Shown here piece after piece: positions 9,716 to 29,538 of a stretch of 64,000 nucleotides of DNA. The DNA comes from Clostridiales bacterium (GTDB lineage Bacteria > Bacillota > Clostridia > Christensenellales > UBA1242). Made by a program: the position numbers and the translations under genes. The notes beneath the pieces are model-generated. The model ran no database searches. It saw only the letters and a program-made list of their open reading frames with translations, and was not told where the DNA came from. Location of the stretch: positions 12,025 through 76,024 of the forward strand of contig SVHM01000004.1 of the NCBI GenBank assembly GCA_015055815.1, in the 5' to 3' direction. How positions within the stretch are numbered: the stretch's first letter is position 1; each line of letters begins with the position of its first letter.

Positions 9716-9725
9716 TTCTCACCTT

Positions 9726-10724
9726 TTATTTTTCCAACATCAAACACGTTTGATATGGTCTATGCTCTATCATATAATCTCTTGCTTTTCTTGTAATAAC
9801 CCCATCTTCACCGTATGTTCCAGCCACATAAATAGCAGGAGTTTCAACTGGAATAGCTTTAATTTTACCCCTATACCTATTCTTTCCTAAATACTTATCG
9901 CTAATGAATGCAATAAAGTCTTTAACTCCTTCATCTTTCTTAAAGAAATAATTTAATTGTATACGTCCATGTGGCAACAAATGGTCAGAATACAACTTAT
10001 TAATCCTGTATTTATACCTTTCTCTATCTACATAATCAAATACATTAGAAAGCAAGATTAGGTCGTATTTAAAGCCTCTAGTCGCATTCAAAATATTATC
10101 AAATTCTTCTGTCTTGTAAGTTATATTTACATTAGACAATTTTTCTCTTAATTTCAAATACTCTTTTTCACTACAATAAAAGTTATTTATAAACTCACCT
10201 TCATTAAACATAGTAAGTTCTTCTTTATTAGTCCCTTCATTAACTTGGTACTTAAACAATCTTGGCTTAATTTCTTCTTTTTTCTTATCATCACAAGCCA
10301 TTATTCTATCCCAAAAATACTTAACTTCAGGGCTTAAATCATGACTAACCTTGTCATAATACTCGCTGTTTAATATATTTTGTGGGGTAAAATAGGATAG
10401 AAACTGCCTTAATGACAAATTTTTAATGCTAGCAATTTTAAGCTCAACATAAAACTTTGCGTATATATTAGCATCAAATAAAGTAATTTCTTTTGCCCCT
10501 TTATACGCACAATGTAATACTTGTTCTCCCGAACTTCCTACTGTTAAAACTTTCTTACCTTCAAGGTCAATATCTTTAAGATACTCGCCAATATTTTCGT
10601 TCGTAAACGAATATATTCTATCAGCACTTCCATGAGTTGGCTTTATATTTTCATGCACAACCCTATCAACCAAAGGTTGAATATTATTTCTATTTAAATA
10701 CGACCTAAATTTATCATCAATCAT
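9726..10724 (-). CDS. SAM-dependent transferase-fold protein (DUF3419/BtaA-like), paralogue 1
   Basis: YSFTNENI, VLTVGSSGEQ, ITLFDAN, FYVELK, YDLILLSNV; GGGGAG RBS before ATG at 10724. Confidence 0.7.
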   Translation of the reverse strand: MIDDKFRSYLNRNNIQPLVDRVVHENIKPTHGSADRIYSFTNENIGEYLKDIDLEGKKVLTVGSSGEQVLHCAYKGAKEITLFDANIYAKFYVELKIASIKNLSLRQFLSYFTPQNILNSEYYDKVSHDLSPEVKYFWDRIMACDDKKKEEIKPRLFKYQVNEGTNKEELTMFNEGEFINNFYCSEKEYLKLREKLSNVNITYKTEEFDNILNATRGFKYDLILLSNVFDYVDRERYKYRINKLYSDHLLPHGRIQLNYFFKKDEGVKDFIAFISDKYLGKNRYRGKIKAIPVETPAIYVAGTYGEDGVITRKARDYMIEHRPYQTCLMLEK

Positions 10725-10839
10725 TTTATTCTCCCCCAAAATAAAAGATTTACAAACTATCCACCATAAAAATATATATCTCACCCAAAAATATTTACAG
10801 TAGATAAAAAAAACCACCAAATTTATTATACTTATATAT

Positions 10840-12557: not shown

Positions 12558-12803
12558 TTAATTATTTGAGCCAGAAATTATCTTTTTGATTTCCTTCAAA
12601 TTACCCAAAGTTAATTCTTCATCAATTTCCTTATAAGCATTTTTGAAAGCGTCTTTTTTCTCTTTAGAGACATCAGGCTTACTCAAAACATAATCTCTAA
12701 CTTTTCTAGCAAACTCCACAACTTCTTCTTTAGTTGTAAAATTAACTTCAGTAATAATTCTTTCAATAACTTCAAACTTATAAATATTTGGATTTTTTGC
12801 CAT
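12558..12803 (-). CDS. Small helical hypothetical protein (81 aa)
   Basis: AAGGAAGGGA RBS, upstream TTGACA/TATAAT, downstream hairpin AAAATGCAAGT/ACTTGCATTTT. Confidence 0.8.
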   Translation of the reverse strand: MAKNPNIYKFEVIERIITEVNFTTKEEVVEFARKVRDYVLSKPDVSKEKKDAFKNAYKEIDEELTLGNLKEIKKIISGSNN

Positions 12804-12871: not shown

Positions 12872-15800
12872 TTATTCCATCACATTTGATTTTTCTAATT
12901 CCTGCCAAACCATATTTTTTAATTGCTTTTTTGCATTTTCTATAGCTTGTTCTCTACCGGCACGGCCTTTATAACGATCAAATAAAGCCATGCCATACTT
13001 ATTTGATTCAATAATTAGATTAAATTTTTCTTCATAATTAACACCTGTGCAATCTTTCAACGAATCGGATTTGGAAATTTCATCAGCAAGACGCTTTAAA
13101 AATTTACCATCCTCTTCTGCTACATACAAATCAAGTTCATCACTATTAACAAGTGTCCCGGTAAAAGCTTTCTTTGATGCATAATCATTATCCAAAATAG
13201 CCATCATTTCTTTAGGATCTTTTCCTTCTAAACTTTTTATAAGCTCAGGTTTAAATTGTCCACCATAATGAAGTTCTCCCTTCGCATCTTTAGTCGATAT
13301 CATTCCCACCAAACCTACAGCAAGACTATGATCAATACTAGTAAATACCTTAACTATTAACGATATAGAAGTTTCGTCAAATGGTGGAGATATTCGCAAA
13401 TTCTTAGAAATCTCATCGCCAGTTATGTCAAATGAAGGATTACTCATTTTTGCATATAACACTTGTTGTAAATAACCAATTTTATTACATCTTATTGTTT
13501 TTCCATCAACTATGGTATCAAAAGAAGATTCATCTTTACCAAATGCCAATAAATTAAACACCTTTTGATAAAGTTTTATTTCTTCATAAGCAGTTTCTTT
13601 ATCTCTCAAAACCTTTGCCCTATCTTCTTCTGATAAAGAATCTATCCCCGTAATCTTAATAGAATTATAAAAACTTTCTGCTTTAGCTGCTAATATTTGC
13701 CCCATTCTATAGAACGCAGCTTTTTCCATTAACTCCGAACCTTTTACTCGTTCTGAAGTTGCATGAGCATCACCACCAACAGGTGTAGACGTTTCAGGCT
13801 TTGGTGGTGTACTAGCTGATGCACCGTCAAGTCTTGGAGATGGTGTCTCGCCAAGAACTTCTGCAATAGGTTTTATATCTGCTACTCCCATTCTAACAAG
13901 TACTTCATGTGCTCTTCTAATATCTACCCCTGCTTTTTCAATTGTTTGGTTTGCATTAGCTTTTGTTGTCCCATCAACATCTGGCATTGCTTGTAATCTA
14001 CTATTTTTAGCAATCGCACTGGCAATTTTTCTACTTGCTTCAGCAAAGTTTTCTTTAGCCCTGTCTATATCTCCTGATTTAGCAGCTAATTCTACTGCAG
14101 TTGCTGCTGCCCCCGCCTCACTTGCTTCAGACATAATTTCCTTAGCCAAGTCTGCTGGAGATAATAATGAACTTCCAGAAGCAGCATGTGAAGCAGCCTC
14201 ATCTGCTCTAGGAGCAACGTGCGGTGTAGCAGAATGTGGAGCCATCATAAATAAATTTTTCGTTTCATCACCTAGAGACAAGTCATTAAAATTAACCTTA
14301 TGTCTATCCATTAAAGTTTCTATAGTATTCTTAGCTTCTTCTATTTTCTGATCAGCACTTAATTTATGTTCATCAGCATTCGGTCTAGTTTCAAGTAGTT
14401 TTCTTAATTTAATTGCACTGGCTAATTTTTTATATGCCATTTCACAAGTTTTCTTAACTAAAAGTTTTTTATCTTCATCTTTATCAAGTTTTGCTAATTC
14501 TCCTTGAATATTAGTAGAATTAATCACATCATTAGCAATTTCTACTATATCTGCTAATAATTCTTTAGCAGTTCTATCTGCACCTTCTATAATCTCTTCT
14601 TTACTCTCTACCTTGGACTCTTTACCTTGTTGCATTATCTGAATATTTTTGATTGCTTTTTCAAGTTCTTCAAGATATTTAATACCAGCTTTTGCGTTAA
14701 ATGGTTTCATTTTCTTCTGATAACCTTTAACGTCAAACTCTTTCTTATCACCAAGTTTTATGTATTTATCCGTTTTTTGTTGAGAATAAGATTTCTTAAG
14801 ATCTGCATCATTAACATTTTCGACTTCTGCATTATCTTTATGTCTTTCCCAAGCTAACATTTGACGTTGTAATTTATCTTTATTAACACTATTAAATTTA
14901 TCAATAAGTTCTTGCGCATCTATTACTTTTTGTTCTGGTACATCTTCGTTATTAGACACTTTTACCAATACTTTACGAGCTTCTTCAACTTCTTTTATAA
15001 GCAACTCTTCAGCTTTTATCACTTTAAGCTCTTTAACTGCATCTTCTTTTAATTTGCTATAATACTTATTAGTACTAGAGCCTTCTTTTTTGCCTGCAAG
15101 TACACTATCTTCCAAAGCTTCAAAGAATTGATTATAGTTTGAAGATTTTGTTTTTTCAGATTGTCCACGATATTTATCTATATGAGTTTTTATAGCAGTA
15201 GTTTTTTCATCATCGCTAAGACCTTCTACTTTCTTTGAGAAAATTTCAAATAAATCTTCAAAATATCCCAATCGGTATATTGCACCTTGCGGAAACTCTA
15301 TATCTGATTTACCTTCAGTAGTTAAAACATCATGTTTAGCATCAATTTCGTATGCATCTGGAATTTTTCCATCATTAGATAAAACCGCTTCACTTTTAGA
15401 CATTTCAACATTAACTTCTTCCAATTCTTTTGAAATAAACTCATTTAAATCACCATCTATTGAAATTAATTCTGCGTCTCTTAATTCATCTTCAGTTAAT
15501 GTTCTAGGATCTTTCTCATTATCTTTGCAAAATCTATGAATTTTTGCTTCTCGCAACGCATCTGTTCTTAATTTTATCAAATGTTCATCATTGTATGTAG
15601 GATCTTCTAGTTGTTTTAGTAAAGAATCAAACAACTCATCAGTTAAAAATGGATCACTGGAAGATTTTAACTCTTCTATTTTCTCTTTTGCAACTTCAAT
15701 TCCCAAGTCTTTTAAATTGGCATATAAACGATTGTAAGCACCCCACATTTCTAAATTAAATACTGAACTAAATTCATCTTCTTCAATAGTAGGGTCAACG

Positions 15801-16957
15801 CCCGCATTTATTACACCATATCTCTCATCCCTTTCCATAACGGGAACTCCTTCAGCTTCGCTCTCTACCGTTGGAGTCTCGAATTTGAATGTTGGGTCGA
15901 ATTTTTGTATGCCTTTTTCAATTGCAAGTGTTACAACTGAAGACGTAGATAATTTTTTAGTATTTACAAATTCAACCAAAAAATCCTTAATTTGACCTTC
16001 AGATATAACCCCTTCTAATTGTTTTATAGAATTTAAAACATATTCTTCAACAAACTCTTTATCAGAACTAATTTTTCCCTCAATCTCACAAAGTTGACTT
16101 AAAGCTACTTTTACTCTATATTGTCTAGGATTACTTAGTATTTCTGAAAATGATTTACCTTCAAATGCTGAAACATCATTACCACTTTCTTTAGCCATGG
16201 CTAAAATCGTATTAAATAAACTTTCAGCAGTAATCTCCACACTTTCGCCTCTAGAAGTAGATTTATTCAAATAACCATTAACAAATCTATTCAAATGCTC
16301 TCCTCTCAATACACCACTTTTTAACAATGCAAATGGAAGAGCACTAGCTTCCGCTGAGTTTATTTCTGATACAAATGTAAAGCTTTGAGATTTCGCATCA
16401 TAAACCATATTATAGCCAAAAATTTTAATAACATCTATTATTTTTACAATCTCATCATTCAAACCAAAATACATTCTGCTATTTGCTTTATTTTTAAGGT
16501 TTTCGGATGATAGTTCAATTTGCTCACAAAGATTTTCTAATTCTTCTTTTATTTTATCAAAACCACGTGCTGAATCTGAATCTTTAATTACTCCCAATTC
16601 ACCCATTACAGCTACAGGAATTCCGACAAGTTTACTTGTATATCTTCTAGCTTTCATTTTTCTGTATAGCGTTTTTAATTTTGTTAATGACTCATCGTCC
16701 ACCATGTCTTTTTCAAGCAATGAGCAAACCTTGTTAATAATTTTAGGTATACCAGCATAACGTATATAATCTCTTTCCATAGAGTATTGTAAACTTCTAA
16801 AATCATCTTTTAACTTCGTTCTAACCTCAATCTTGTTACTTCCTAAAAATTCAGTATCTGCACTACTATCTGTTGAATAATAAATAATATTATTAGCCAC
16901 TATATCCTTGTCTTTTATCATCTCAACAAATTTTGCATTTTTAATTGTTCCCGCCAT
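12872..16957 (-). CDS. Giant hypothetical protein A (1361 aa), candidate T4SS substrate or accessory protein
   Basis: 4 kb uninterrupted ORF with AAGGA RBS; charged and helical, A/S/P-rich internal segment; no signal peptide or TM seen. Confidence 0.85.
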   Translation of the reverse strand: MAGTIKNAKFVEMIKDKDIVANNIIYYSTDSSADTEFLGSNKIEVRTKLKDDFRSLQYSMERDYIRYAGIPKIINKVCSLLEKDMVDDESLTKLKTLYRKMKARRYTSKLVGIPVAVMGELGVIKDSDSARGFDKIKEELENLCEQIELSSENLKNKANSRMYFGLNDEIVKIIDVIKIFGYNMVYDAKSQSFTFVSEINSAEASALPFALLKSGVLRGEHLNRFVNGYLNKSTSRGESVEITAESLFNTILAMAKESGNDVSAFEGKSFSEILSNPRQYRVKVALSQLCEIEGKISSDKEFVEEYVLNSIKQLEGVISEGQIKDFLVEFVNTKKLSTSSVVTLAIEKGIQKFDPTFKFETPTVESEAEGVPVMERDERYGVINAGVDPTIEEDEFSSVFNLEMWGAYNRLYANLKDLGIEVAKEKIEELKSSSDPFLTDELFDSLLKQLEDPTYNDEHLIKLRTDALREAKIHRFCKDNEKDPRTLTEDELRDAELISIDGDLNEFISKELEEVNVEMSKSEAVLSNDGKIPDAYEIDAKHDVLTTEGKSDIEFPQGAIYRLGYFEDLFEIFSKKVEGLSDDEKTTAIKTHIDKYRGQSEKTKSSNYNQFFEALEDSVLAGKKEGSSTNKYYSKLKEDAVKELKVIKAEELLIKEVEEARKVLVKVSNNEDVPEQKVIDAQELIDKFNSVNKDKLQRQMLAWERHKDNAEVENVNDADLKKSYSQQKTDKYIKLGDKKEFDVKGYQKKMKPFNAKAGIKYLEELEKAIKNIQIMQQGKESKVESKEEIIEGADRTAKELLADIVEIANDVINSTNIQGELAKLDKDEDKKLLVKKTCEMAYKKLASAIKLRKLLETRPNADEHKLSADQKIEEAKNTIETLMDRHKVNFNDLSLGDETKNLFMMAPHSATPHVAPRADEAASHAASGSSLLSPADLAKEIMSEASEAGAAATAVELAAKSGDIDRAKENFAEASRKIASAIAKNSRLQAMPDVDGTTKANANQTIEKAGVDIRRAHEVLVRMGVADIKPIAEVLGETPSPRLDGASASTPPKPETSTPVGGDAHATSERVKGSELMEKAAFYRMGQILAAKAESFYNSIKITGIDSLSEEDRAKVLRDKETAYEEIKLYQKVFNLLAFGKDESSFDTIVDGKTIRCNKIGYLQQVLYAKMSNPSFDITGDEISKNLRISPPFDETSISLIVKVFTSIDHSLAVGLVGMISTKDAKGELHYGGQFKPELIKSLEGKDPKEMMAILDNDYASKKAFTGTLVNSDELDLYVAEEDGKFLKRLADEISKSDSLKDCTGVNYEEKFNLIIESNKYGMALFDRYKGRAGREQAIENAKKQLKNMVWQELEKSNVME

Positions 16958-16982
16958 ATTCTTTTCCTTTTTAAATTAGATT

Positions 16983-17037
16983 TTGAAGTGCAAATCTAGT
17001 ATATTTTTATTATAACATACTTAGATTTGCATTTCAA
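16983..17037 (-). promoter_or_regulatory. Sigma-A promoter of giant gene A embedded in a ~20-bp inverted repeat
   Basis: Minus-strand TTGAAA (17032-17037)-17-TATAAT (17009-17014) with extended TG; arms TTGAAGTGCAAATCTAGTAT and ATACTTAGATTTGCATTTCAA. Confidence 0.7.
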
Positions 17038-17047
17038 TACCCACTTA

Positions 17048-20000
17048 TCATTCTACTTGTTCTAATTTTTTCTTATTGAAATAATCTTCGAAACATCTTT
17101 GAACAGTTAAGACTCCTTCTTTATAGAAGATATCTCTATTAAGTGCTTTTTGCATATCTGTAGGAGTTTTTAATCTATTGATAGTTTCCAAAACTGTTGA
17201 AATGTTATCACCAATTTTGAACACATGACCTTTATCTGTTTCAGTAATTGATGAGAAACTTGCAAATAGGTTTATTCCAAGTTCTGCAACATTTAATCTA
17301 TCTGCGACTATTTCAATATTTTTTACAACATCAACAAGTTCTTCATGTTGACAAAGTTCGCTTACAACATAAGCAAAAGGTCCAAGTTCGTGGTCTTTGT
17401 CTACAATATATCTAAACAAATATTGTTGCATGAAACCTTTGATATTACATACAATTGATTGGTTGTTTGGAAGTGCAATTTCCAAATCTTTCTCTGGATT
17501 TTTCTTATTAGGAAGTTCGCCAACAAATTCAAGAAGTTTTCCTACTTCTTCCATTTCAGATAAAACAATTGCGTTGGTTTCATTTTTAATAGCTTTGTTA
17601 AAGCCTTCTTGAATTCCCCTAAAGATTACGTCAATATTTTGAATTCTTACTTTTTCTTTTAAAGTAGTATTTTCTTCTTCATCTTCCGCTTCTGCACGAT
17701 ATTCTTCTAGGTCAACAATCTTTTCAAGATTTAATTCAAAGTATTTAGCAATTTCTCTTTCATAGCCATTTACTTGAATTTTATCTCTAATTTTTGCTAG
17801 TAATTGACTTCTTAATTTCTTTTTATAATCGGCATAATATGTGCTAAGGCTTTCTGATACTATCCTTTCATCTTGAGACATTTTTTCAAACAATTCAAAC
17901 AACGCATAGTATAAATACAATGTTTGATATGCTTCAATATCTTCAATGCTAGCATAAATTTCTGGATGCGGATTAACCAAATCTTCTGATTTTGTATTAA
18001 AGTCAGTCTCAAGAATATCTAGAGCATCTACTTTTTCTTCTTTAGTTTTCTTATCAAAGCTATTCGATTCCCAAATAGTCTTATTGATATAAAGAACTTT
18101 ATTGAAATGACCGTTAAACTCGTTATTTACATGGGCTATATAATCTACCACTCTTTCACATTTAGACATCATTACATTTCTAATAACTTGGGTAATAATG
18201 CTAATGCTATCTTCTGGGAAATCATTAAATTTCTCATTAATCTTATTTAAAGATAATAGTCCATCTTGATAGAAATCTTCTTTAAGTTGAGTTTTACCTG
18301 GTTCTAAACCATATTTAAAACCAAACGCCATTAGGAAGTAATATTCTTTTATTCTAGATTTATCTAAAACAAATCCCCTTCTTACAAACCATTTATCGTC
18401 TTCGTAATCATAAGTAATGTCTTCAGCGCTTATTTCTTTTTTCTCTTTTTCTTTGCTTGCAAATTTTACAAGGTTTGTTACTGGCTTTTTAGTTTCATCA
18501 ACAAGGACAGTAGCCTTAATATCTATCGTTTGGCTTAATGCATCAATCAAATTTTCCATAAACTTAACACCACTATTAAGTGTAAATGGTTTTAGTTTAA
18601 GAAGAAGTTTATTGTATGCGCCATTGAATTTATATAATATACCAAATAGATTAACAACTTTATTTCCAGACAAATCTGCTTGGTTGCCTGTTGTCAACAT
18701 TTCGTTTTGTTCAAATGACAAGTTCTTACCCGATTTAAGTCTTTTATCTGCACAATTTTTCTGTCTAAAGAAAATTGCTCTTGGGTATGTATCAAAACCG
18801 TTTTCTTTTTCATCTTCATTTTGAATTATAACGTTTTGAGCCTTGATAGAGAAACTTAAATAGTCGCCCATTCTTTCATATGCTTCATCACTTGAAAGAC
18901 TAACTTTTGGTATCTCTCCACTTTCAATCTTTGCAATAAGTGAATTAATATATGATTGCTTCATTTTACTAGAATATGCTTCAAAAGTTCTTCTAACACT
19001 TCCGTCTGTCATAATTGCTTTGGCAACTGTAGCGATAATTGTTGCTGATGACATTACGTTATCTTTAACATTATCTGGAATATAGTTTTCTAGGTCTCCT
19101 GCAAATCTATGTTCTATTAAATCTTTAAGCAAATTATAATCGATTGTATCGATAAGTTCTTTATAGTCTTCAATAATTGTATCAATAATATTTTGTGGAA
19201 TATATTGAGCCAAGAACTTTCTAACGTCACCCGTATAATCAAACTTTGTAAGATTACTATCAAGTGTAGCAAAGCCCGACTTTTTCATGGCAACTTTTAC
19301 ATATCTAATATGAATATCGTTTATTATCTGTTCTGGAGTTTGAATTTGTGCTTTCTTTCCATCAATATATGTATAAAGTACGTTATTATCAGTAGTCAAC
19401 AAGAACTTATATCTATCATATGTAGCATAACCTTCCATCGCATTACCATAAACAGTAACACCTTTATCTTCGTATCCAACAATATATGGAATAATACATG
19501 GCTCTACATTATCACTTACAAAATCAAAGTTTTGATACTCTTCATTGTTATTTTTTGAGTTATTTGTATTCACTTGACTACTTCCCCCTGAAACGACTGG
19601 TGTCGCTGGTGCTACTACTACTGGAGTTGAAGCAACAACTGGTGTACTCACTACTTGAGTTGGAGTCGCACTAACAACAGGAGCTGGAGCAACCGTTTGC
19701 ACAGGAGCGCTTGCTACAGGTGTTGGAGTTGATGCTATTACATTACTACTAACCGAACTAGCAATTGGAGTTGCAACAGGAGCTACTGGAGCCACAGGCC
19801 TAACAATGCTTGCCCCACCACCAAGCGGACTACGCATAGGTGCTTGTGGAATTGGTTGTTGAACTGGATATCCTTGTGGATATGGTTGTGATGGATACGG
19901 ATTTTGCGGATATGGTGCATTAATTCCAAATGTTGGTCCACCAAGCGGAATTGTAGGCGATGCAACATTTCCATAGTTTTGTGGAATATTAGGCATTGGC

Positions 20001-22105
20001 ATTCCATTATATGCCCCTACGCCACCTGCACTTCCAACAATACTGCCATAAGCATTAATATAGGCATTAACACTTTTTACCCTTTCTTCTTTTTGGGCTT
20101 TCTTAACCGACTCTCTAACCTTGTTTTCTTCCAAGATTTTTTGGTGGCTTTCATCACTTATTTTAGCTGCAGTCTTTTCAATAATTTTATCTACGTCTGA
20201 AAGTTTATCAGTCTTTTTATCGAACTGTTCGCCTTCTTTATGTTTTATCCAAGAAACAGCCTTACCCTTATCAAATGTAACTACTAGTTCTGGAACTGAA
20301 GATAATGTCTGTCTAATAATTTCAACTTTATCTTCCATAGAAAGTTGTCTATTTTCGTCTTTTGCCTTATCAACAGCTTTATCAATATTCATCTTAACAA
20401 TTTCTTTTTGAGACTTAGCGTTAAGAAGAAGTATTCTAAAGTTATTTTTTGATTTCAAAAGAGTATTTTTTGCATCTTTATATTCAGTGTTACCAATCTT
20501 CTGAGTTAGTTCGTCAATTTGAGATTGATAATAAGCAATTTGTTGATCACTGTCTTTGCCTTTATCAATAGCAATTCTATCAATCAAATCTTCATAGTTT
20601 TTCTTCTTTGTGATATATTCTTTTTGGTCGTCTTGTTGAAGCAAGAAGATTTTTTCTTTTCTTAAATAATCAACAGTATAATTATCGATAATATCTTGAA
20701 CAAACACTCTCATTTCAAGAAGTATTCCATGCATTGAGTTTATAAGTCTAAATGCTTGGTCTTCAAGTTTTTCAACCTTTGCTTTGTTTACATTGATATC
20801 GCTCAAATCAATATTAAGACCAAAGTCTCTAGATATATCGCTTGCCCTATAATCACTAATACTTAATTGTTCATTAGACAAAATCTCCTGTCCATTAAGT
20901 AATTCTTCAAACATTTCACCAATGACAAGTCTTTTAGCTTGTTGCTTGATATGAATTTTATTTGTCAAATCATCTTTGTTTTCTTTATTGGCATAATAAT
21001 CAGAATAGTATAGTTTTTGGAAATCTTTCCATTCCTTTGCATTTCTACTATATCTTTTGATTACTTCTCTGAAGTATGCCTTGGCACTCTTTGTGTTTGC
21101 CATCTTACCAAATATCTCATCAAGTTCAACAGCCGATCTAGTATTTAAACCCAAACCTTTTTCTGCTTCATTGATATAAGATATAAATACTTGACCTGGA
21201 GTTATAAACTTTCTATTTTCAATAGGCCTATTCAAAAACTCATCAACAAATCTATGACAACTATCTTTTGAAAGTCCAAAAGTTTTTTCTTGTTCACCAA
21301 GGAAATACTTAATTCCGTTTGAGTTTGTGCCCTTTATTGAATAATGACCATAGTCATCTTTATCAACAACAAGTCCAACATAAGCAAGTGCTGAAACAAT
21401 ATCAAAGTCTTGTTCTTCTTTATTCTTCTTAATTTCAGACTCAATACCCGCTTGAGATGGTATTTCTTCGTAACCTTCTGTACAAACATCTTCAAAAAGT
21501 TTAGTTGCATTTTTTATATTAAGAACTTGGATGCTATCGTATGAATTAAGAATTGGCAAATACTTAGCAAGAACAATGTTGTATACAACAACTTTCTCTA
21601 TCTCTAAACCTACTTGTTCTGGAGTTGCTCTTAATGCTTTCATCTTATCGATTTTTCTCAAAACTTTTGCTCTGTAATTAAGAATACGGATAACAATGCC
21701 AAGCACTTTCTCACTACAACCTTCAACTTCATACACTTCATCTGGAATATCAATGTATTCTTTTTCATCAATGTACTCAATGTTTGGTTGATATTCTTCT
21801 TCCACAACTTCCATAGTAAGATTTTCTTCAGTTTCAGTAGCAGGAGTTTCTTGAGCTATCTTTTTCTTTCTCTTTTTCTCTGCTATCTCATCAATCCTAC
21901 TAAGTGTGTTTAAATCGTACTGAGCCAAGTGGTAATTAATAAGAGCCACAAGTTGAGCTTTGTCTTTTGGCCAACAAACAAGCGGGCTATCCAATTTCAA
22001 ATTATGAAGTATCCCTAGTTTATATTTCCTACTCGACTTTGAGCCATCACTATGACTATAAAATTTTAGTAATTGTCCATTTCCATTTTTCATTAATACT
22101 GACAC
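17048..22105 (-). CDS. Giant hypothetical protein B (~1685 aa), candidate T4SS substrate or accessory protein
   Basis: 5 kb ORF; AAGGAG 7 nt before GTG at 22105 (ATG at 22093 is an alternative); coiled coils and a central P/Y/Q then V/A/P/T low-complexity tract; no signal peptide or TM seen. Confidence 0.85.
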   Translation of the reverse strand: MSVLMKNGNGQLLKFYSHSDGSKSSRKYKLGILHNLKLDSPLVCWPKDKAQLVALINYHLAQYDLNTLSRIDEIAEKKRKKKIAQETPATETEENLTMEVVEEEYQPNIEYIDEKEYIDIPDEVYEVEGCSEKVLGIVIRILNYRAKVLRKIDKMKALRATPEQVGLEIEKVVVYNIVLAKYLPILNSYDSIQVLNIKNATKLFEDVCTEGYEEIPSQAGIESEIKKNKEEQDFDIVSALAYVGLVVDKDDYGHYSIKGTNSNGIKYFLGEQEKTFGLSKDSCHRFVDEFLNRPIENRKFITPGQVFISYINEAEKGLGLNTRSAVELDEIFGKMANTKSAKAYFREVIKRYSRNAKEWKDFQKLYYSDYYANKENKDDLTNKIHIKQQAKRLVIGEMFEELLNGQEILSNEQLSISDYRASDISRDFGLNIDLSDINVNKAKVEKLEDQAFRLINSMHGILLEMRVFVQDIIDNYTVDYLRKEKIFLLQQDDQKEYITKKKNYEDLIDRIAIDKGKDSDQQIAYYQSQIDELTQKIGNTEYKDAKNTLLKSKNNFRILLLNAKSQKEIVKMNIDKAVDKAKDENRQLSMEDKVEIIRQTLSSVPELVVTFDKGKAVSWIKHKEGEQFDKKTDKLSDVDKIIEKTAAKISDESHQKILEENKVRESVKKAQKEERVKSVNAYINAYGSIVGSAGGVGAYNGMPMPNIPQNYGNVASPTIPLGGPTFGINAPYPQNPYPSQPYPQGYPVQQPIPQAPMRSPLGGGASIVRPVAPVAPVATPIASSVSSNVIASTPTPVASAPVQTVAPAPVVSATPTQVVSTPVVASTPVVVAPATPVVSGGSSQVNTNNSKNNNEEYQNFDFVSDNVEPCIIPYIVGYEDKGVTVYGNAMEGYATYDRYKFLLTTDNNVLYTYIDGKKAQIQTPEQIINDIHIRYVKVAMKKSGFATLDSNLTKFDYTGDVRKFLAQYIPQNIIDTIIEDYKELIDTIDYNLLKDLIEHRFAGDLENYIPDNVKDNVMSSATIIATVAKAIMTDGSVRRTFEAYSSKMKQSYINSLIAKIESGEIPKVSLSSDEAYERMGDYLSFSIKAQNVIIQNEDEKENGFDTYPRAIFFRQKNCADKRLKSGKNLSFEQNEMLTTGNQADLSGNKVVNLFGILYKFNGAYNKLLLKLKPFTLNSGVKFMENLIDALSQTIDIKATVLVDETKKPVTNLVKFASKEKEKKEISAEDITYDYEDDKWFVRRGFVLDKSRIKEYYFLMAFGFKYGLEPGKTQLKEDFYQDGLLSLNKINEKFNDFPEDSISIITQVIRNVMMSKCERVVDYIAHVNNEFNGHFNKVLYINKTIWESNSFDKKTKEEKVDALDILETDFNTKSEDLVNPHPEIYASIEDIEAYQTLYLYYALFELFEKMSQDERIVSESLSTYYADYKKKLRSQLLAKIRDKIQVNGYEREIAKYFELNLEKIVDLEEYRAEAEDEEENTTLKEKVRIQNIDVIFRGIQEGFNKAIKNETNAIVLSEMEEVGKLLEFVGELPNKKNPEKDLEIALPNNQSIVCNIKGFMQQYLFRYIVDKDHELGPFAYVVSELCQHEELVDVVKNIEIVADRLNVAELGINLFASFSSITETDKGHVFKIGDNISTVLETINRLKTPTDMQKALNRDIFYKEGVLTVQRCFEDYFNKKKLEQVE
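19560..20050 (-). repeat. Low-complexity Pro-rich coding tract with degenerate repeats
   Basis: PYPQNPYPSQPYPQGYPVQQP followed by repeated (A/T)PVV(A/S) units; locally GC-richer. Confidence 0.8.
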
Positions 22106-22203
22106 AATAACACTCCTTAAAAAACCTATCAAATTTTTTAAATTGAAATAATTTTTTCCTATTTTAAATTAAATTTATTTAATTTACATACTCTTACAAA
22201 ATT

Positions 22204-22321: not shown

Positions 22322-25000
22322 TTAATGTCCGACACCCTTTAAATAATCTGGGTTATTAAATAATTCTCTTGCGACATTCAAAGCTTCTATTTGAACGGTA
22401 GTTCTGTTCATTGGTCCAGTAATCAAGAATACCTGACCACGTCTTGCAGTTACAATTGAGTTCTGCTCTTCTTTGTTAATACCACCCGCATTACGATAAA
22501 GGGTTATAAGGTCGTTAATATCGGCTGGAGCAAGTGACAAAATCAAAGAATATTGACAGGCATTAATAATAGCAGTAGATTGCTGAGCAATCTCTTCAGA
22601 ACCAACGAAGTCTTTGATGTTCTGTGTAATGATTATCTGCATTCCGTTATATTTTCTTATACGTTTTGCCATCTGCGCCATAAAGTCAAGCGCTATAGGA
22701 TATTTTTTGTTAATAAATACGTGCGCTTCGTCAACTGCAACGATAACACGTCTATGGTCTTCTTCTAGTTCCTTATCAGCAAAATACTTAAGGTTAAAGT
22801 CTCTGTTTTTAATAATTTCAGAGTCCAAATATTTAAATACTAGAAGCATCTGTGCGTTTGTAATAGTATCATTACGGTTAGAAACCAGTGTTCTAAACGA
22901 GAAACATATAAAGTTTTCGTTTGTTACAATTGAGTTGTAACCATTCCAAAGGTTTGAGTTACGACCACCAGAACCGAATTTCTCAATGAACATTCTAACA
23001 ACTTGTAAATTTTTTAAATGATAGTCATTTTTTTCCGCTTCTATCTTTTTATCAACAAGTGCAATCAAATCGTCAAATGTTGGAAAATCTGTCGGAAGTA
23101 AGTCAGGAATTGATGTTGCTGGGGTAATATTCATAGAATAATAAAGCTCAGCAATAACGGCATTTAACATTTCAAATGCGTCTGTTGTAATTCCCGGCAA
23201 AATCAGTCTAAAGAACTGCTCCATAAACTGCAAGTGGGCACCGAATGTATCGCTCGATTCACCTTCTTCGTCTTCCAGTGTTGCATATATGTGGAATGGA
23301 TTAAAGATACCGTTTGTTGAGTTACCAACGTCGATAATCTTTCCACCCAAGTTCTGGCACAATATCTCATACTCGTTCTCGGGGTCGAGAATGAATATAC
23401 GAGTATTATCCGCTGCAAAGTTTGTAAGAAGTGTCTTCGTACAATAAGATTTACCCGCACCAGATTTACCTATAATCATCATGTTACTATTAACTCTTTC
23501 GTTGTTACGAGCAAAGAAATTTGTAAACACAGGATACTGGTTGTATCCAATATAAATTCCCCTTTCGTCGTGCAAAGTAGTAGATACAAATGGGAAACTT
23601 GCAGCAAGAGATGATGTTTGTATTCCCCTTCCATACATCTTTTGAAGTTTATCAAGACGTGAAATATTACTCGAAATAAAGCCATCAACTTGTCTTGCAA
23701 AGTTTTCAGAAAATTTATAACCGTTCTGTCTAAGCACTGCCCTTACTTCTTTCTTAACCGCTTCTCTAGCAACGATATGAATTGTGGTATTATAAAGGTT
23801 TTCGTTTGCACCTTTAATACCTTTAAGTAATTCTTTTAATGTTTCAACGTGGTTTTGTGCGTCAATTTTTTCAGATGACCTAAGGTCTTTTTTAAGCCTA
23901 ATTTCCATCTCCATCAAAGATTTATCCAAGTCTTTTTCAGCCTTGTATTTATCGATAGGAGAAATATTCACAACTACTCTACTTTCATCTAACGCAAATA
24001 ATGGATATGCCCATGCATTAGGAACTTCAATTGGGTAGTCTGTTATTGTAAAAATTCTAAAGTTTTCGCCGTCAATTTTCGTATTTCTTAAGTTAAATCT
24101 AACATCATCAGGATATGTCCAAGCTGCTTTTTCTTTAACATTAAGAAGTTCAATTTCTCTTTCATCAAAGTCGGTACAGAATGTACTTTTCATAAATACA
24201 TAAAGTCCGTCACCTTGAATAATTTTTGTAAATATTGGAGTCGCACTACTCTCTAAGGATGCAACAACACCATTAACTGTATTATTTAAAGCATCTCTAT
24301 CTGTATCATAAATAACCATGTAGAAATGGTCTTTAATAATCTTTTCTTGGTGGTTCATAAAGTTAATTGCTTGCAATCTTTCTTCAAAAACCGGTGCCCT
24401 ACTATCTAGTTCTGCAGGAGTATAAAGTCCCCTTTCGTGCATATCGTTCATAGTATTATAACGATAGTCTTCATACTTCGCCATGTCATCTAGAAGCATA
24501 GGCTTTCTTGTCTTAATAATAGTACAGTTTTGAGATAAGTTAAGTCTCTGAATAGCATTAGCAAAACTATCAATAGTCATGTTCTGTCTTTCTTCAGTTA
24601 GAAGTCCAAATGACATAGGGAAAATTTCAATAACTGATGCGTAATAATCGCCAAATTTCAGGAAGTTTTCCATATTAATATCGTCAAATGGCATGATGTT
24701 TTTTATATTAGCATTACCTTTTAATTTCTTTGAATAATGTTTGTGGTATGCCATATACTTAAACGTCAAAACTATTCCATAGTATAATCTAATTCCTTCA
24801 CTCATTTCAAGCAACAACATTGCCCATGCACCAGCAAAAAACATTGCCAGGTACAAGTTATATACCCAGTATTCAAATAAGTTAGTTGTAGCTAGCAATA
24901 TTGTTAGCCCTACGCCAATAAGAATAAGTATACAGTCAAAAACTGTAAAGTTCCTAAATAACGTAGTTTTTACTTTCGTTTTTCTCGGAATAAATCTCAT
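22322..25000 (-). CDS. virB4: VirB4-family T4SS ATPase with fused N-terminal PrgI/VirB3-like membrane module
   Basis: Walker A GKSGAGKS, LDPENEY, FNPF, Walker B VAVDEAH, RIRKYNG, ITQN; N-terminus IPRKTKVKTTLF plus two TM helices; AGGAG 7 nt before ATG at 25000. Confidence 0.92.
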   Translation of the reverse strand: MRFIPRKTKVKTTLFRNFTVFDCILILIGVGLTILLATTNLFEYWVYNLYLAMFFAGAWAMLLLEMSEGIRLYYGIVLTFKYMAYHKHYSKKLKGNANIKNIMPFDDINMENFLKFGDYYASVIEIFPMSFGLLTEERQNMTIDSFANAIQRLNLSQNCTIIKTRKPMLLDDMAKYEDYRYNTMNDMHERGLYTPAELDSRAPVFEERLQAINFMNHQEKIIKDHFYMVIYDTDRDALNNTVNGVVASLESSATPIFTKIIQGDGLYVFMKSTFCTDFDEREIELLNVKEKAAWTYPDDVRFNLRNTKIDGENFRIFTITDYPIEVPNAWAYPLFALDESRVVVNISPIDKYKAEKDLDKSLMEMEIRLKKDLRSSEKIDAQNHVETLKELLKGIKGANENLYNTTIHIVAREAVKKEVRAVLRQNGYKFSENFARQVDGFISSNISRLDKLQKMYGRGIQTSSLAASFPFVSTTLHDERGIYIGYNQYPVFTNFFARNNERVNSNMMIIGKSGAGKSYCTKTLLTNFAADNTRIFILDPENEYEILCQNLGGKIIDVGNSTNGIFNPFHIYATLEDEEGESSDTFGAHLQFMEQFFRLILPGITTDAFEMLNAVIAELYYSMNITPATSIPDLLPTDFPTFDDLIALVDKKIEAEKNDYHLKNLQVVRMFIEKFGSGGRNSNLWNGYNSIVTNENFICFSFRTLVSNRNDTITNAQMLLVFKYLDSEIIKNRDFNLKYFADKELEEDHRRVIVAVDEAHVFINKKYPIALDFMAQMAKRIRKYNGMQIIITQNIKDFVGSEEIAQQSTAIINACQYSLILSLAPADINDLITLYRNAGGINKEEQNSIVTARRGQVFLITGPMNRTTVQIEALNVARELFNNPDYLKGVGH

Positions 25001-25089
25001 TTTCATTCTCCTAAAATTCATCCCTAGGCAAGTTTACCTTGCCTAGTTCCGAATGTCTTTGCAAAGATTATACCTTTGCAGTGTTTATC

Positions 25090-27765
25090 TTACTTTCCAC
25101 CCATGTTTTTAAGTTTAGTATCAATAGCTTTAAGAATTTCATCAAGAAGTTTCTTATTACCAGCAGAGCCTTCTGCTTGTAATACTTTAGTGATTTCATC
25201 GATAATTGCTTTCTTATCCATACCTTTAGTTTTAGCCATAGCAGCTTCCAATGAAGTTGTATCAAGCTTAACTTCAACTTTACCATCAACCCCAATGCTA
25301 GTTCCATTTTCTCTCATTTTATCAGTTAAACCAAACATCGCATTTCTAAGTTGTGGTAAATATTCTCTATCATATTGACGTCCATCATAAGTTCCCTTAC
25401 CTTTGGATTCAACATCTGTTATACATTTTTGTAGTTCTTTTATTTGATCGGCAATCTTTTGTCCACTAACTCTCATTTCAGCTTTCTGAGCATTGATAGC
25501 CTCTATCATAGCATCATTAATAAGTGAATACTGTATATCATTTCTAGCATCAATAGTTGATTTGTGTGTAGCGTTGTATCTAGCTTTCTTGCCATCTTTT
25601 CTTTCATCCATAACAGAAGCTAAAGCGGCTTCACCTTCTTCACTATACGAAGCACCTGCCTTCTCAGTTTTTTGCCAACTTTCCCAAGCATCAAAAGCTC
25701 CTCCAATTGGGGTTGACTTTAACAATTCCCTTCCTCTTTCAATTAAAGCACCTTTAGCAACCTGCTGTCTTGCTAGTTTCTTTTCTCTCGAAGCAGATGC
25801 CACATCACTTGCTTCTTTTAAAGTCTTTGCCTCATCAGTTTTTCCGCTCAAGAAACTCTCAGCAGCATCTCTTTTTTCTTGAGCCTCCTTCAATCCATCT
25901 CTATGCTTATTTAAAGCACTTGGAATATCAACCGATTTATTATCTTCCTTCCATTTTTGCAAAAAAGCCTTTTCATCATCAGTTCTCTTATTACCTTTTT
26001 TGGCAGTTATTGAATTTGCCTTTTCATAATCATCAATCCAACCCTGATGTTCTGCAATACTATCTTCAGCTTCAGTTGATGCTGTTTGATATTCTTCTTT
26101 TTTACTTTGATATGCCAATTCGGCATTCGATGCTTTATGACCAGACATCTCTTGCAATCCCTCTCCGAACGACTTTAATCCATTTCCAACAGTTTGTCTA
26201 AATTGATTAAATTTTGATACCTTTTTACCTGCCTGCACAGCCTTTCCTGCCGCAGAAGCACCTTTTAGCGCCATTGACCCACCCATTTTAGCAGCCAATC
26301 CACCAACTGCAGCAGTACCAGCCCCAGCAGTCATTATTCCAGCACCGATTGCTAAAGCTGCTGTAGTAGCTGTAGATACTGCCTTTTTTGCAGTATCACC
26401 AACTTCTTTAGATATGGCTTTACCACTAGACATAGCATCCTCAGCACCTAAATAACCGCTGAAATCTTTAGACCATTTTTCTATCATTAGACATCCGCCA
26501 ATAACTAAAATAAGCCTTAAAATATCATCCATAACATCTATACCAAATGAATATCCGGCATCCCAAAAGTGCCCTTTAAAATCTATATCAATTGACATAA
26601 GTAATGAATTTATTGTAAAAAATAAGTTCATAGCAATTACAACACCATATGCCGATATCGCTTTACCCACAAACGAAGTTCTCCACTTACCTAAATTATC
26701 AGTTACTGGAGACATTCCAATAACTAAAGGCGCCATAATAAACAATGCCGTACAATAATACAACCTAATTACCATTCCAAAACAAACATTAACTAAACAT
26801 TTTATTATTATAGCACCACCTACTATTAAAAACACGTAATTCACTTCGATTAAGTTATAGTAAAGTGAAGCTTGAAACATATTAGTACACGAAAACCCTT
26901 GTTCACCATTAATAAAATTTTGATCTATAACATCATAATCATCTTCAATCTCAAGACCGACTATATTTTCTAATACAAAATCTTCAACCTCTTGTAAATT
27001 AAATACAATTCCTATTAAATCTGTAATATCAGTTTCATAATCGCCCGAAATTTCATTAACAACACCTTCATACATTTGCATGCCTCCGTAAGCCATGCCC
27101 AAATAGATCATAGTGTACGGATCTCCCGGGAATATACAACGAATGTCATTTTCATCATATTTTGCATTGTAGGCCGACGCCACAAATAACGCTCCCGATA
27201 TAGATGCCTTACTACTATTTCCAGTTGTTGCCGTATCAAGAAGTCCTAAAATTTCATTTCCAATAAATACGCCAAAAATACAAAGAATTGGTATAAGCAT
27301 TAAGTTACAAAGACCTTTAAATGTTTTTTCTAGAATTGGTCCTTTAGCATTTTTTGCCCCTTCAGTAGTATATTCAACTCTAATAATTTGAAATACTGTT
27401 GTCATAACAAGTAAGAATACTCCCACTATACACATAGCAAGAAAAGCTTCTTGAACAACATTATGTCTAATAAGTTGAATCAAAAGATCGCCTTCTCCAC
27501 CCCCATCTAACGTCATTGTCATTCCTTCTACATCTAAGCCTGCGAGCAACCTAAATAAAACTTCAACAAATTCAATTAATGACATCAACATTGCAGAAAT
27601 ATAATATAAACTAGATGCCAACACCGCTTTAAGAAGTCCAATAATAGCAACTACTAACACCTTAATTACACGTCCCAACAAGCCTGATATAGCAGGCACA
27701 GCCTCATTCGAGAACCAATCTATAAGTGGTGTAAGAAAACTTGCCAACATCATTCCAATTCCCAT
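25090..27765 (-). CDS. Extended VirB6/TrbL-like polytopic membrane protein
   Basis: Multiple TM helices in the N-terminal half with a VirB6-like segment (RLYYCTALFIMAPLVIG..W), Gly/Ala-rich linker, long charged C-terminal tail; lies between pilins and virB4. Confidence 0.75.
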   Translation of the reverse strand: MGIGMMLASFLTPLIDWFSNEAVPAISGLLGRVIKVLVVAIIGLLKAVLASSLYYISAMLMSLIEFVEVLFRLLAGLDVEGMTMTLDGGGEGDLLIQLIRHNVVQEAFLAMCIVGVFLLVMTTVFQIIRVEYTTEGAKNAKGPILEKTFKGLCNLMLIPILCIFGVFIGNEILGLLDTATTGNSSKASISGALFVASAYNAKYDENDIRCIFPGDPYTMIYLGMAYGGMQMYEGVVNEISGDYETDITDLIGIVFNLQEVEDFVLENIVGLEIEDDYDVIDQNFINGEQGFSCTNMFQASLYYNLIEVNYVFLIVGGAIIIKCLVNVCFGMVIRLYYCTALFIMAPLVIGMSPVTDNLGKWRTSFVGKAISAYGVVIAMNLFFTINSLLMSIDIDFKGHFWDAGYSFGIDVMDDILRLILVIGGCLMIEKWSKDFSGYLGAEDAMSSGKAISKEVGDTAKKAVSTATTAALAIGAGIMTAGAGTAAVGGLAAKMGGSMALKGASAAGKAVQAGKKVSKFNQFRQTVGNGLKSFGEGLQEMSGHKASNAELAYQSKKEEYQTASTEAEDSIAEHQGWIDDYEKANSITAKKGNKRTDDEKAFLQKWKEDNKSVDIPSALNKHRDGLKEAQEKRDAAESFLSGKTDEAKTLKEASDVASASREKKLARQQVAKGALIERGRELLKSTPIGGAFDAWESWQKTEKAGASYSEEGEAALASVMDERKDGKKARYNATHKSTIDARNDIQYSLINDAMIEAINAQKAEMRVSGQKIADQIKELQKCITDVESKGKGTYDGRQYDREYLPQLRNAMFGLTDKMRENGTSIGVDGKVEVKLDTTSLEAAMAKTKGMDKKAIIDEITKVLQAEGSAGNKKLLDEILKAIDTKLKNMGGK

Positions 27766-28080
27766 TTTCCATCTCCTATAAAAAATCATTTTCATGATAA
27801 TTTTTTAAATTAAGACAACTGCCACAAAAGGCAATTTTTTAGTGCAATTTTTTACTCTAAAAAACAACACTCTAACATATACTAATATCTTACCCCATTT
27901 CGACAAAAAAAACAAATAAAATTAATAATATTTATTATATTTATATAAATATATTTAACTACAAATATTTTTTACAATTATTTTATTATATTTTTATCTA
28001 TATTTTTATCAAAAAAAATTATTATAAAAACGTAATCTCAAAATGAATTATACATTTTGTTATATATTTATAAAACTCAA

Positions 28081-28108
28081 AAAAAATGGCGATTATTCGC
28101 CATTTTTT
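28081..28108 (-). terminator. Terminator after pilin 1
   Basis: AAAAAATGGCGA-ttat-TCGCCATTTTTT. Confidence 0.85.
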
Positions 28109-28427
28109 ATTCAGCTTCAGCCGCATAACCAAACATTTGAACAAAGCCTGCCCAATCAACAAAAGTACAAATTGCCGAAAGACCCAAAATCAACAGAACA
28201 CCCACCGCCAAGTTCACAATTCTCTTCTTAACTTCAGCCCTTTTGTCATCACTTTCTGACCTAGCATATTGTACTCCAAGGACTATAATATATATAGCCC
28301 CTGCACCACCAAGCGCTATAAGAATTGGACCTACAATTGTAGACAAAATTGTTTTAATTTGACCACCCAATTCTTCTAGTTTTGTATTTGCCAATAGTCT
28401 TGACATAGTCATTAATAATTTATTCAT
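28107..28427 (-). CDS. VirB2/TrbC-like pilin 1 (106 aa)
   Basis: Short leader, two hydrophobic helices separated by a charged loop (YARSESDDKRAEVKKR); GGAG RBS; T4SS context. Confidence 0.8.
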   Translation of the reverse strand: MNKLLMTMSRLLANTKLEELGGQIKTILSTIVGPILIALGGAGAIYIIVLGVQYARSESDDKRAEVKKRIVNLAVGVLLILGLSAICTFVDWAGFVQMFGYAAEAE

Positions 28428-28790: not shown

Positions 28791-29147
28791 TTATTCAATA
28801 ACGAAACCTAGATAAACTTGATCCCATTTTACTGCGAAACATACAACTATACCAGCTATAATAATAACAGCTCCAACAACTGCACCTATTAGTCTACCTT
28901 GAACTTTCTTTCTACCATCAGCATCTTCAGCCTTAGCATATTGGATACCTAGCATAATAGCATAGATAACTGCAGCAACACCGATAACAGTTAGAACTGG
29001 TCCTATAATCTTGTTCATAATCTTTCTGAACGCATTAGCCAAGTCTTGCAAAGATGTAATTTCTGTAGAACCATTACCAACTCCATCTTCAGCCAATCTT
29101 GTAAAAGATGCAAACATTTTGTTCATAACCAACATAAGTTTATTCAT
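28791..29147 (-). CDS. VirB2/TrbC-like pilin 2 (118 aa), probable major pilin
   Basis: Paralogue of pilin 1 (IIGPVL..IYAIMLGIQYAKAEDADGRKKVQGRL); GGAG RBS before MNKL at 29147. Confidence 0.8.
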   Translation of the reverse strand: MNKLMLVMNKMFASFTRLAEDGVGNGSTEITSLQDLANAFRKIMNKIIGPVLTVIGVAAVIYAIMLGIQYAKAEDADGRKKVQGRLIGAVVGAVIIIAGIVVCFAVKWDQVYLGFVIE

Positions 29148-29538
29148 ATTTTCTATCTCCATACATATTTTTTTTAGTTTTGATTAACTTAATTCAAGTT
29201 TATATAAATTCTTGACTTTAGTCAACTAAATTTATCTAAAATTTTAAAAAAATTTATTTTTTTTCAATTTTTCTTATATTTATTACTTTTGTAGCATGAT
29301 TTTTGAACATAAGGTGAATTATTTATTGTAAACAAACCCAAAACATCTTTTCCACACACCACTATTTTTAAGTAAGGATATTGTAAAATTTTACTTCATT
29401 AAATATTTTTATATTAAATAACTTTGCTTATTTTTTTTGACAACATTGTAAAAACTATATATACTAATATATATTAAATTAAAAATTAAAAAACTTAATT
29501 TTATACAAATTGTTTAAGTTTAAAAGAAGGATGAAAAA

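Follow-up and report, generated by a model that had tools for sequence, protein, structure and literature searches.

A conserved and a hypervariable giant protein encoded beside a chromosomal type IV secretion system in a gut Clostridia genus are very probably diverged paralogues

Two adjacent minus-strand genes, A (12872..16957, an open reading frame (ORF) of 1361 amino acids (aa)) and B (17048..22132, 1694 aa from a TTG start, or 1685 aa from the GTG at 22105 used in the database form), encode giant proteins that match no family in Pfam, NCBIfam or PHROG. They lie in a stretch of 64,000 nucleotides (the window) of contig SVHM01000004.1 of a Clostridiales bacterium (assembly GCA_015055815.1), in a same-strand run straight after the VirB4-type ATPase of a type IV secretion system (T4SS). 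A and B are very probably diverged paralogues of one unannotated family. Both are giant soluble proteins. B is the slow copy and A the fast one, whose sequence is no longer recognisable in other species and is in part replaced within its own. Our best explanation of the whole, to which we give a rough probability of 0.55, is a paralogous pair of contact proteins linked to the T4SS.

A preliminary description of this DNA had quoted N- and C-terminal motifs common to the two proteins, and all of them were located where claimed and in collinear order. Near the N-terminus, HLNRFVNGYLNK of A (residues 221-232, 16262-16297) corresponds to SCHRFVDEFLNR of B (residues 291-302, 21227-21262), continued by ITAESLF in A and ITPGQVF in B; the DNA is similar here too, as had been noted, with a run of 11 identical bases, CATAGATTTGT. 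Toward the C-terminus, a CN motif reads KTIRCNKIGYLQQVLY in A (residues 1153-1168, 13454-13501) and QSIVCNIKGFMQQYLF in B (residues 1558-1573, 17414-17461). It is accompanied by a second (KxP) motif, KDPKEMMAILDND in A (residues 1246-1258) and KTPTDMQKALNRD in B (residues 1655-1667), at a spacing of 89 residues in A versus 93 in B. A third shared motif, which that description had missed, lies in mid-protein, at A749-769 and B1179-1199, and takes the form KKxKPYxxKxxIK in the A type and LKLKPxxLxxGVKFMEN in B.

These motifs sit in larger conserved parts. In A, the N-terminal domain (about residues 86-395, 15773..16702, minus strand) is backed by hhalign, by alignment A3 and by a hidden Markov model (HMM) of the N core, and contains the core motif FVNGYLNK...ITAESLF (16214-16297, minus strand). 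The mid block (residues 725-790, 14588..14785, minus strand) is the best-conserved island of the A-type proteins; it contains KMKPFNAKAGIKYLEELEKAI at 14651-14713, and in the A-type alignment A1 its P752 and K760 are invariant. A C-terminal stretch (13184..13537, minus strand) holds the CN motif and, at 13184-13222, the KxP motif. B has an N-terminal domain (residues 136-491, 20660..21727), a middle region aligned to the A-type middle (residues 880-1200, 18533..19495, ending in KLKPFTLNSGVKFMENLIDAL at 18536-18598) and a C-terminal domain with an invariant CN motif (residues 1500-1694, 17051..17635), all on the minus strand. As the preliminary description had it, the stretches between differ: residues 700-860 of B (19553..20035, minus strand) form a low-complexity linker of 12-21% Pro and 53-61% Pro, Ala, Val, Ser and Thr together, and A900-1100 is Ala/Pro/Ser-rich. 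Neither protein has a transmembrane-like window in a simple scan made with no dedicated predictor (maximum KD19 hydropathy 1.48 in A and 1.38 in B).

Direct comparison of the two proteins says little. Pairwise BLASTP found nothing significant, the best match having an expectation value (E) of 0.043 at the third motif; the CN motif scored E 0.33 and the N motif was unreported. With A alone against a 23-row profile of the B family, the CN, mid and N motifs were the top three matches, in collinear order (E 0.0017, 0.047 and 0.11), set against E 0.62 for reversed A and E 0.032-0.63 for ten window-shuffled copies of A; relative to these controls the match is weak, if suggestive. Whether started from A or from the A-type alignment, word-indexed protein searches recovered nothing beyond A itself; their list of about 8000 candidates was swamped by low-complexity words and is uninformative on relatives.

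Comparison at the level of families is far stronger. An hhalign of 45 A-type against 23 B-type proteins gave one hit of 710 columns (E 1e-23, P 99.6%), with a further hit, collinear and C-terminal, at E 0.011. Only 14 A-type rows already gave E 2.2e-14 for the N domain, and the B middle matched the A-type middle as hit 2 (E 3.4e-5), a match that merged into the 710-column hit with the larger profile. As a negative control, eight same-locus queries from genomes lacking B (one alignment of seven C-family proteins, plus seven individual first giants) were set against the B and A-type profiles, and the best of these 16 hhalign comparisons reached E 0.07. We also built HMMs of single blocks from 44 A-type proteins, with the window's A excluded, and ran them over the 1530 ORFs of at least 80 aa in this genome. 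The N-core HMM found B at E 1.2e-15 and A at E 9.1e-7, with low bias and the next ORF at 0.0033; the mid-block HMM found A at E 1.1e-9 and B at E 7.3e-6, with the next ORF at 0.017. Both block HMMs single out A and B alone. A combined N HMM returned A as its top non-self match (E 0.0028), both proteins match the N-domain family profile A3 (~300 aa), and both carry the mid-block pattern K-x-K-P-[YF]...[IV]-K-[FYW].

Two results weigh on the other side. The family has no member more divergent than the window's A: an HMM of the B N-domain alone misses it, and a full-length A-type HMM finds it only at E 6e-5, with high bias and level with a coiled-coil false match. That the likeness arose by chance between low-complexity, coiled-coil-rich giants, as the pairwise E of 0.043, the one shuffled copy in ten that reached E 0.032 and the coiled-coil false matches of full-length HMMs near E 1e-4 could suggest, is nevertheless very improbable and, within the limits of sequence statistics, refuted for the N and mid blocks, since third-party block profiles select A and B alone at E 1e-6 to 1e-15 and the family-level alignment stands at E 1e-23 against E of at least 0.07 for the same-locus control giants. 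On these third-party profile results, homology of A and B is therefore accepted for the mid-protein block and for an N-terminal domain of ~300 aa, and the proposal that they are distant paralogues is very likely correct. The family had also been called an unannotated two-domain one; it is indeed without a match in the three family databases, and its common parts appear to number more than two (N domain, mid block and, probably, a C block).

For the C-terminus the case is less firm. Six positions of the CN region (I1560, C1562, N1563, G1566, Q1570 and Y1571) are invariant in the B family, and A carries five of them. An HMM of the B-family C domain run over the same 1530 ORFs gave A as the top non-self match (E 0.0045, next 0.15), and hhalign gave E 4.5e-5 for the C-termini only and 0.0017 at full length. 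One A-type protein, P0093, carries the C domain of B including the CN motif (E 1.1e-9). Against this, widening the C-domain profile with P0093 and P0058 drops A to E 0.014 and rank 3, an A-type C-block profile run over the genome's ORFs found neither A nor B, and the likeness of A to the CN domain of B is marginal overall (E 0.002-0.014). The C-terminal motif had been offered as evidence of A-B homology; we consider it probable that the C-terminus of A is homologous to the C-terminal CN domain of B. The pattern CNxxG(Y/F)xQQxL does not serve as the family signature it was proposed to be: it belongs to the B type and not to the whole family, because of the 45 A-type proteins only P0093 and the window's A carry the motif. 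An NlpC/P60-like reading of the CN...GH residues was rejected, the His not being conserved in the B family.

The two copies evolve at very different rates. Measured from this genome across 11 related loci, identity is 78-82% for MnmA, 79-82% for VirB4, 73-78% for VirD4 (at 10 of the 11 loci; L058 has a partial match of 54% at 16% coverage) and 74-81% for orf81, an 81-aa protein encoded directly downstream of A. B falls to 38-57% and the 901-aa membrane protein of the T4SS to 29-35%, and A matches over no more than 2-7% of its length. Replacement is also seen within the species. Contigs of run X10 (same species) cover B at ~99% identity, and a single contig of 4816 nucleotides links 12872 to 14655 via 2111 different letters, and 14788 to 15143 via 345 different letters. 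The island that stays alike in this alternative A allele, 14655-14788, is the mid motif. The mosaic region of A spans 12872-15287, with the 3' 1782 bases exchanged for 2111 others in the X10 strain. Run X11, from another study, has loose ends at matching places (14642-14655 and 15240). Runs X11 and X13 cover gene A patchily at a likeness of 85% or more, with no bridging contig, and were not used as evidence.

B has 49 relatives at 33-62% identity, and 17 of the 41 genus genomes carry an orthologue of it. At all 13 loci that were fetched, the pair lies between VirB4 and orf81, and an ORF of 1074-1704 aa stands directly downstream of B in the position of A. These A-slot proteins are barely alike among one another, and their divergence runs along the whole protein. 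The N-domain profile finds the same 17. Of these, 14 have exactly two copies, side by side, and contig ends interrupt the other three, as expected of the old duplication that had been proposed; no copy lies outside the slot in any of the 17. A search of 1.84 billion representatives with this profile returned only 51 proteins, which fall into three B-type clusters versus at least about 40 A-type clusters at 50% identity. The profile did not find the family in 200 other genomes of the order, and a metagenome scan with the B alignment added one locus and one weak Pro-rich match. Related public records describe uncultured Clostridia or Christensenellales of guts, and full-text searches brought up no publication that deals with either protein.

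Of the 16 B-positive rows in a quick VirB4 tree, 15 group as a single clade (SH-aLRT 100), and the cassette type follows the tree. The exception, G016, comes from a contaminated assembly that has several VirB4 pieces, and it sits on a long branch; the fragmentary G001, G011 and G046 were not included. In the genomes covered, the family is restricted to one clade of one genus. As 14 of its 17 genomes have both copies and contig ends cut the remaining three, the A/B duplication is older than the B-positive clade. Clades without B have other giant ORFs in the slot after VirB4, or none. Those giants have no detectable relation to A or B, and a search with the mid-motif pattern found none among them, the pattern being too strict for that to mean much. 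At seven such loci (L065, L067, L070, L073, L074, L069 and L068) the cassette consists of a hypervariable first giant of 951-1847 aa, orf81, an aldolase gene on the opposite strand and a second giant of 875-1116 aa that forms a separate family of its own; no Pfam or NCBIfam match was reported for this second-cassette set. One giant of the B-negative genomes is a BspA-type leucine-rich repeat protein. Further giant ORFs of the present genome (G000), at C12:21334-26724 and C7:75564-79082 (both plus strand), were among the weak HMM matches.

Structure prediction gives the family a mainly helical outline. The AlphaFold2 model of the B N-domain (m35e56eeb6a73, from a 29-row alignment; pLDDT 79.7) combines a four-strand meander with helices, some of them paired as long hairpins; that of B residues 862-1694 is less confident (pLDDT 69.6), with the mid-motif region of low confidence. 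Fold searches with the N-domain model brought up helical hairpins, none above background (Foldseek best E 0.067 in the PDB and 0.13 in BFVD; VIA best Z 7.4 in the wide search and 6.6 on a second look), and those with the 862-1694 model were likewise at background level (Foldseek best E 0.25; VIA wide best Z 6.6, for a four-helix sub-part). Since neither model was of a single domain folded alone, to speak of no known fold would exceed what the searches show. A PDB-sequence profile search returned designed coiled coils only, Pfam at E of 10 or less had no family in more than three of the 29 N-domain rows, and the ESM Atlas offered unnamed clusters only (0.91-0.92, few common features), with no usable match among named clusters. 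A T4-lysozyme (GH24) reading of the N domain was not upheld. Many of the Foldseek rows for the N-domain model are what we take to be receptor-lysozyme fusions; no lysozyme entry is in the VIA lists, hhalign of A3 against T4 gene e gave E 0.12 and P 0.5%, and the column that presumably corresponds to the catalytic Glu of T4 lysozyme varies among A, N, S, E and K. A complex prediction for the N domains of B and A, run without controls, had a score of 0.08 and a mark of 0.32.

The T4SS beside the pair is of the type known from the integrative and conjugative elements (ICEs) of Mycoplasma. Upstream of B on the minus strand stand the VirB4-type ATPase of the Mbov_0397 family (22322..25021; NF045975, 602.3 bits against a cut-off of 590; Pfam P-loop_TraG), the 901-aa polytopic membrane protein of the MMCAP2_0566/Mbov_0396 family (25090..27795; NF045848, 106.3 bits, cut-off 90), a 106-aa pilin-like protein of the Mbov_0395 family (28107..28427; NF045849, 43.1 bits, cut-off 40) and a second pilin-like paralogue of 123 aa (28791..29162; 36.5 bits, below that cut-off). 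The VirD4 coupling protein, of the CD1115 family, is on the opposite, plus strand (29539..31599; NF045973, 309.6 bits, cut-off 250; Pfam T4SS-DNA_transf, E 8e-58). The gene row therefore reads two pilin-like genes, membrane protein, VirB4, B, A and orf81. The C-terminal half of the membrane protein, which is VirB6-like, is a long charged coiled-coil tail. From its gene to A only weak terminator-like sites occur, and a strong terminator-like hairpin follows each pilin-like gene (28108-28081 and 28782-28755); the pilin-like genes may be transcribed separately from the run of membrane protein, VirB4, B and A.

The whole set is flanked by the conserved housekeeping genes mnmA, thyX and tmk. VirB4 of the Mbov_0397 type occurs in 41/41 genomes of the genus and 7/7 other-genus genomes of the taxonomic family, and is patchy in the order. 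In this 98%-complete genome the relaxase families PF03432, PF01076 and PF03389 had no match, and PF02486 scored 18.7 bits, below its cut-off. Neither a relaxase nor a variable insertion site thus marks the locus as a mobile element; a DDE transposase was outside the search. The system appears to be a fixed part of the cell's machinery and not a mobile element, because it sits between housekeeping genes, is present in every sampled genome of the genus and lacks a relaxase in the search made, and it looks like a domesticated machine in genomes of 1.0-1.4 Mb. A pair of neighbouring DUF3419 paralogues (344 and 364 aa, 8681-10820, minus strand) lies downstream of mnmA.

At the other end of the run, orf81 (12558..12803, minus strand) has a putative promoter (12862-12835) that agrees with the consensus at 12 of 12 positions and a terminator (12556-12524) with 15 pairs. 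It is found in 40 of the 41 genus genomes at 47-82% identity, and stands directly behind the unrelated giants of the B-negative genomes as well. A possible promoter of its own lies upstream of A also. We regard orf81 as a candidate chaperone or adaptor.

The preliminary description had proposed that A and B could be T4SS effectors or a heteromeric scaffold associated with the T4SS. The speed and mosaic replacement of A suggest that it is likely an interface with other cells. In the reading that we favour, B would stay constant while A would vary and face the partner; the common N domain and mid motif would dock to the machine or to a shared partner, while the variable C-terminal regions would face a changing target. 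On balance we hold a functional link to the T4SS to be likelier than its lack, and we propose, more tentatively, that A and B may act in contact together with the T4SS, either exported or presented on the surface. Several observations weigh against this. The only link of A and B to the T4SS is gene adjacency. The preliminary description had suggested a check for co-occurrence with the T4SS, and in one direction co-occurrence holds, the family never being seen without the system; in the other it fails, for the system occurs without the family in 24 of the 41 genus genomes and in all seven sampled other-genus genomes of the taxonomic family. Finally, neither protein has a signal peptide or a match to an LPXTG-like motif, in simple scans made with no dedicated predictor. 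Because signal peptide, transmembrane segment and LPXTG are all missing, any export would presumably have to go through the T4SS itself.

These same absences fit a different account, in which A and B are cytoplasmic accessories of the T4SS that are never exported and serve in substrate recruitment, in DNA processing as a stand-in for the relaxosome, or as an assembly scaffold. That no relaxase scored above its cut-off for any of the four Pfam families would leave room for such a stand-in, the long helical and coiled-coil architecture of the models would suit a scaffold, and most channel-module genes of the Mycoplasma ICEs have no known function, as far as the portion of the source consulted goes (PMC6030558). 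An internal scaffold, however, is not expected to diverge beyond recognition while VirB4 and VirD4 hold 73-82%, nor to be partly swapped within a species, and domain searches of A and B found no nuclease or HUH-type domain. We think a cytoplasmic role rather unlikely, though it is the alternative that fares best.

It is improbable that the T4SS delivers the A-type proteins as polymorphic effectors or toxins whose C-terminal killing domains can be exchanged, with B as a conserved helper or co-effector. A conserved N-terminal part joined to a variable, recombining C-terminal part is what such proteins would have, and the contrast of at least about 40 A-type clusters with three of the B type would agree. 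Yet none of 37 A-type proteins had any Pfam domain at E of 0.001 or better, divergence spans the whole protein and is not confined to the C-terminus, and the downstream orf81, conserved at 74-81%, shows no immunity-like co-variation with A.

We give about as little credence to the idea that A and B are unconnected with the T4SS and form a fast-evolving cytoskeletal, envelope or surface-layer pair that happens to lie beside it. Adjacency as the sole link, the many genus genomes with the system and without the pair, and the possible promoters before A and orf81 would all be compatible with this; the slot between VirB4 and orf81 is constant at 13/13 loci, though, clades without B put other giant ORFs into that slot, and none of the 17 genomes has a copy elsewhere.

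Within the reading of a T4SS-linked contact pair, one can go further and imagine that, in a gut Clostridia lineage with reduced genomes, a conjugation machine of the Mycoplasma-ICE type became a permanent cell-contact organ with B and A as its exported working end. B would then serve as an unchanging shaft or adaptor, and A would form a hypervariable tip, swapped by recombination, that chooses the partner cell (bacterial host, prey or mate), while orf81 would be a conserved chaperone or adaptor binding the invariant mid motif. We consider this version speculative and, as it stands, unlikely.

Whatever its role, the pair defines a protein family for which Pfam, NCBIfam, PHROGs and the Protein Data Bank yielded no match, and whose conserved and hypervariable paralogues are retained as obligate partners. 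It sits in a chromosomal, relaxase-less T4SS present in every sampled genome of a small-genome gut genus. Should it merely neighbour the T4SS, a fast-evolving orphan would still have been traced to a conserved paralogue. Once a member of the genus is cultured, the A alleles, orf81 and the invariant mid motif offer experimental handles.

Several known systems invite comparison. PrgB and PrgC of pCF10, surface proteins of Gram-positive conjugation, are large and mediate cell contact; they span the wall with Pro-rich stretches and have signal peptides as well as LPXTG anchors. A and B resemble them as large proteins with Pro-rich stretches encoded together with a monoderm T4SS, and differ in having neither a signal peptide nor an LPXTG motif, the marks of a sortase-anchored adhesin. 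The effectors of the Xanthomonadales X-T4SS are diverse large substrates with a common C-terminal domain that binds VirD4, and with variable toxin domains accompanied by immunity genes. Here too varied large proteins have one conserved domain that could serve for docking, which in the X-T4SS binds the coupling protein; A and B, in contrast, are best conserved N-terminally and in mid-protein, no toxin domain was found in them, and orf81 does not co-vary.

Closer in gene content are the Mycoplasma ICEs (ICEA/ICEB), for here VirB4, the 901-aa protein and one pilin-like protein pass the cut-offs of the Mbov_0397, MMCAP2_0566 and Mbov_0395 families. The present system differs in being chromosomal, with housekeeping flanks, present in 41/41 genomes of the genus and without a relaxase in the search described; A and B, moreover, match no NCBIfam ICE family. 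The ICEA channel module, as described in the part of the source available to us, has VirB4 and VirD4 amid a series of proteins that are for the most part unknown (PMC6030558), and a distant counterpart of A or B may be present among the ICEA products.

The Patescibacteria, bacteria with small genomes, are described in the sections consulted as having a monoderm-type T4SS without key conjugation components, a hint of a non-conjugative role (PMC12102498). By analogy the two cases would share a chromosomal, relaxase-less T4SS in small genomes; they differ in phylum, and giant paired proteins are not mentioned in those sections (PMC12102498). The question is the same in both: what role a fixed T4SS has in a reduced genome. 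If the T4SS studied here should prove to be a cell-contact organ, it would be a monoderm counterpart of the T4SS lifestyle of the Patescibacteria, and the pair would represent a new class of T4SS substrate.

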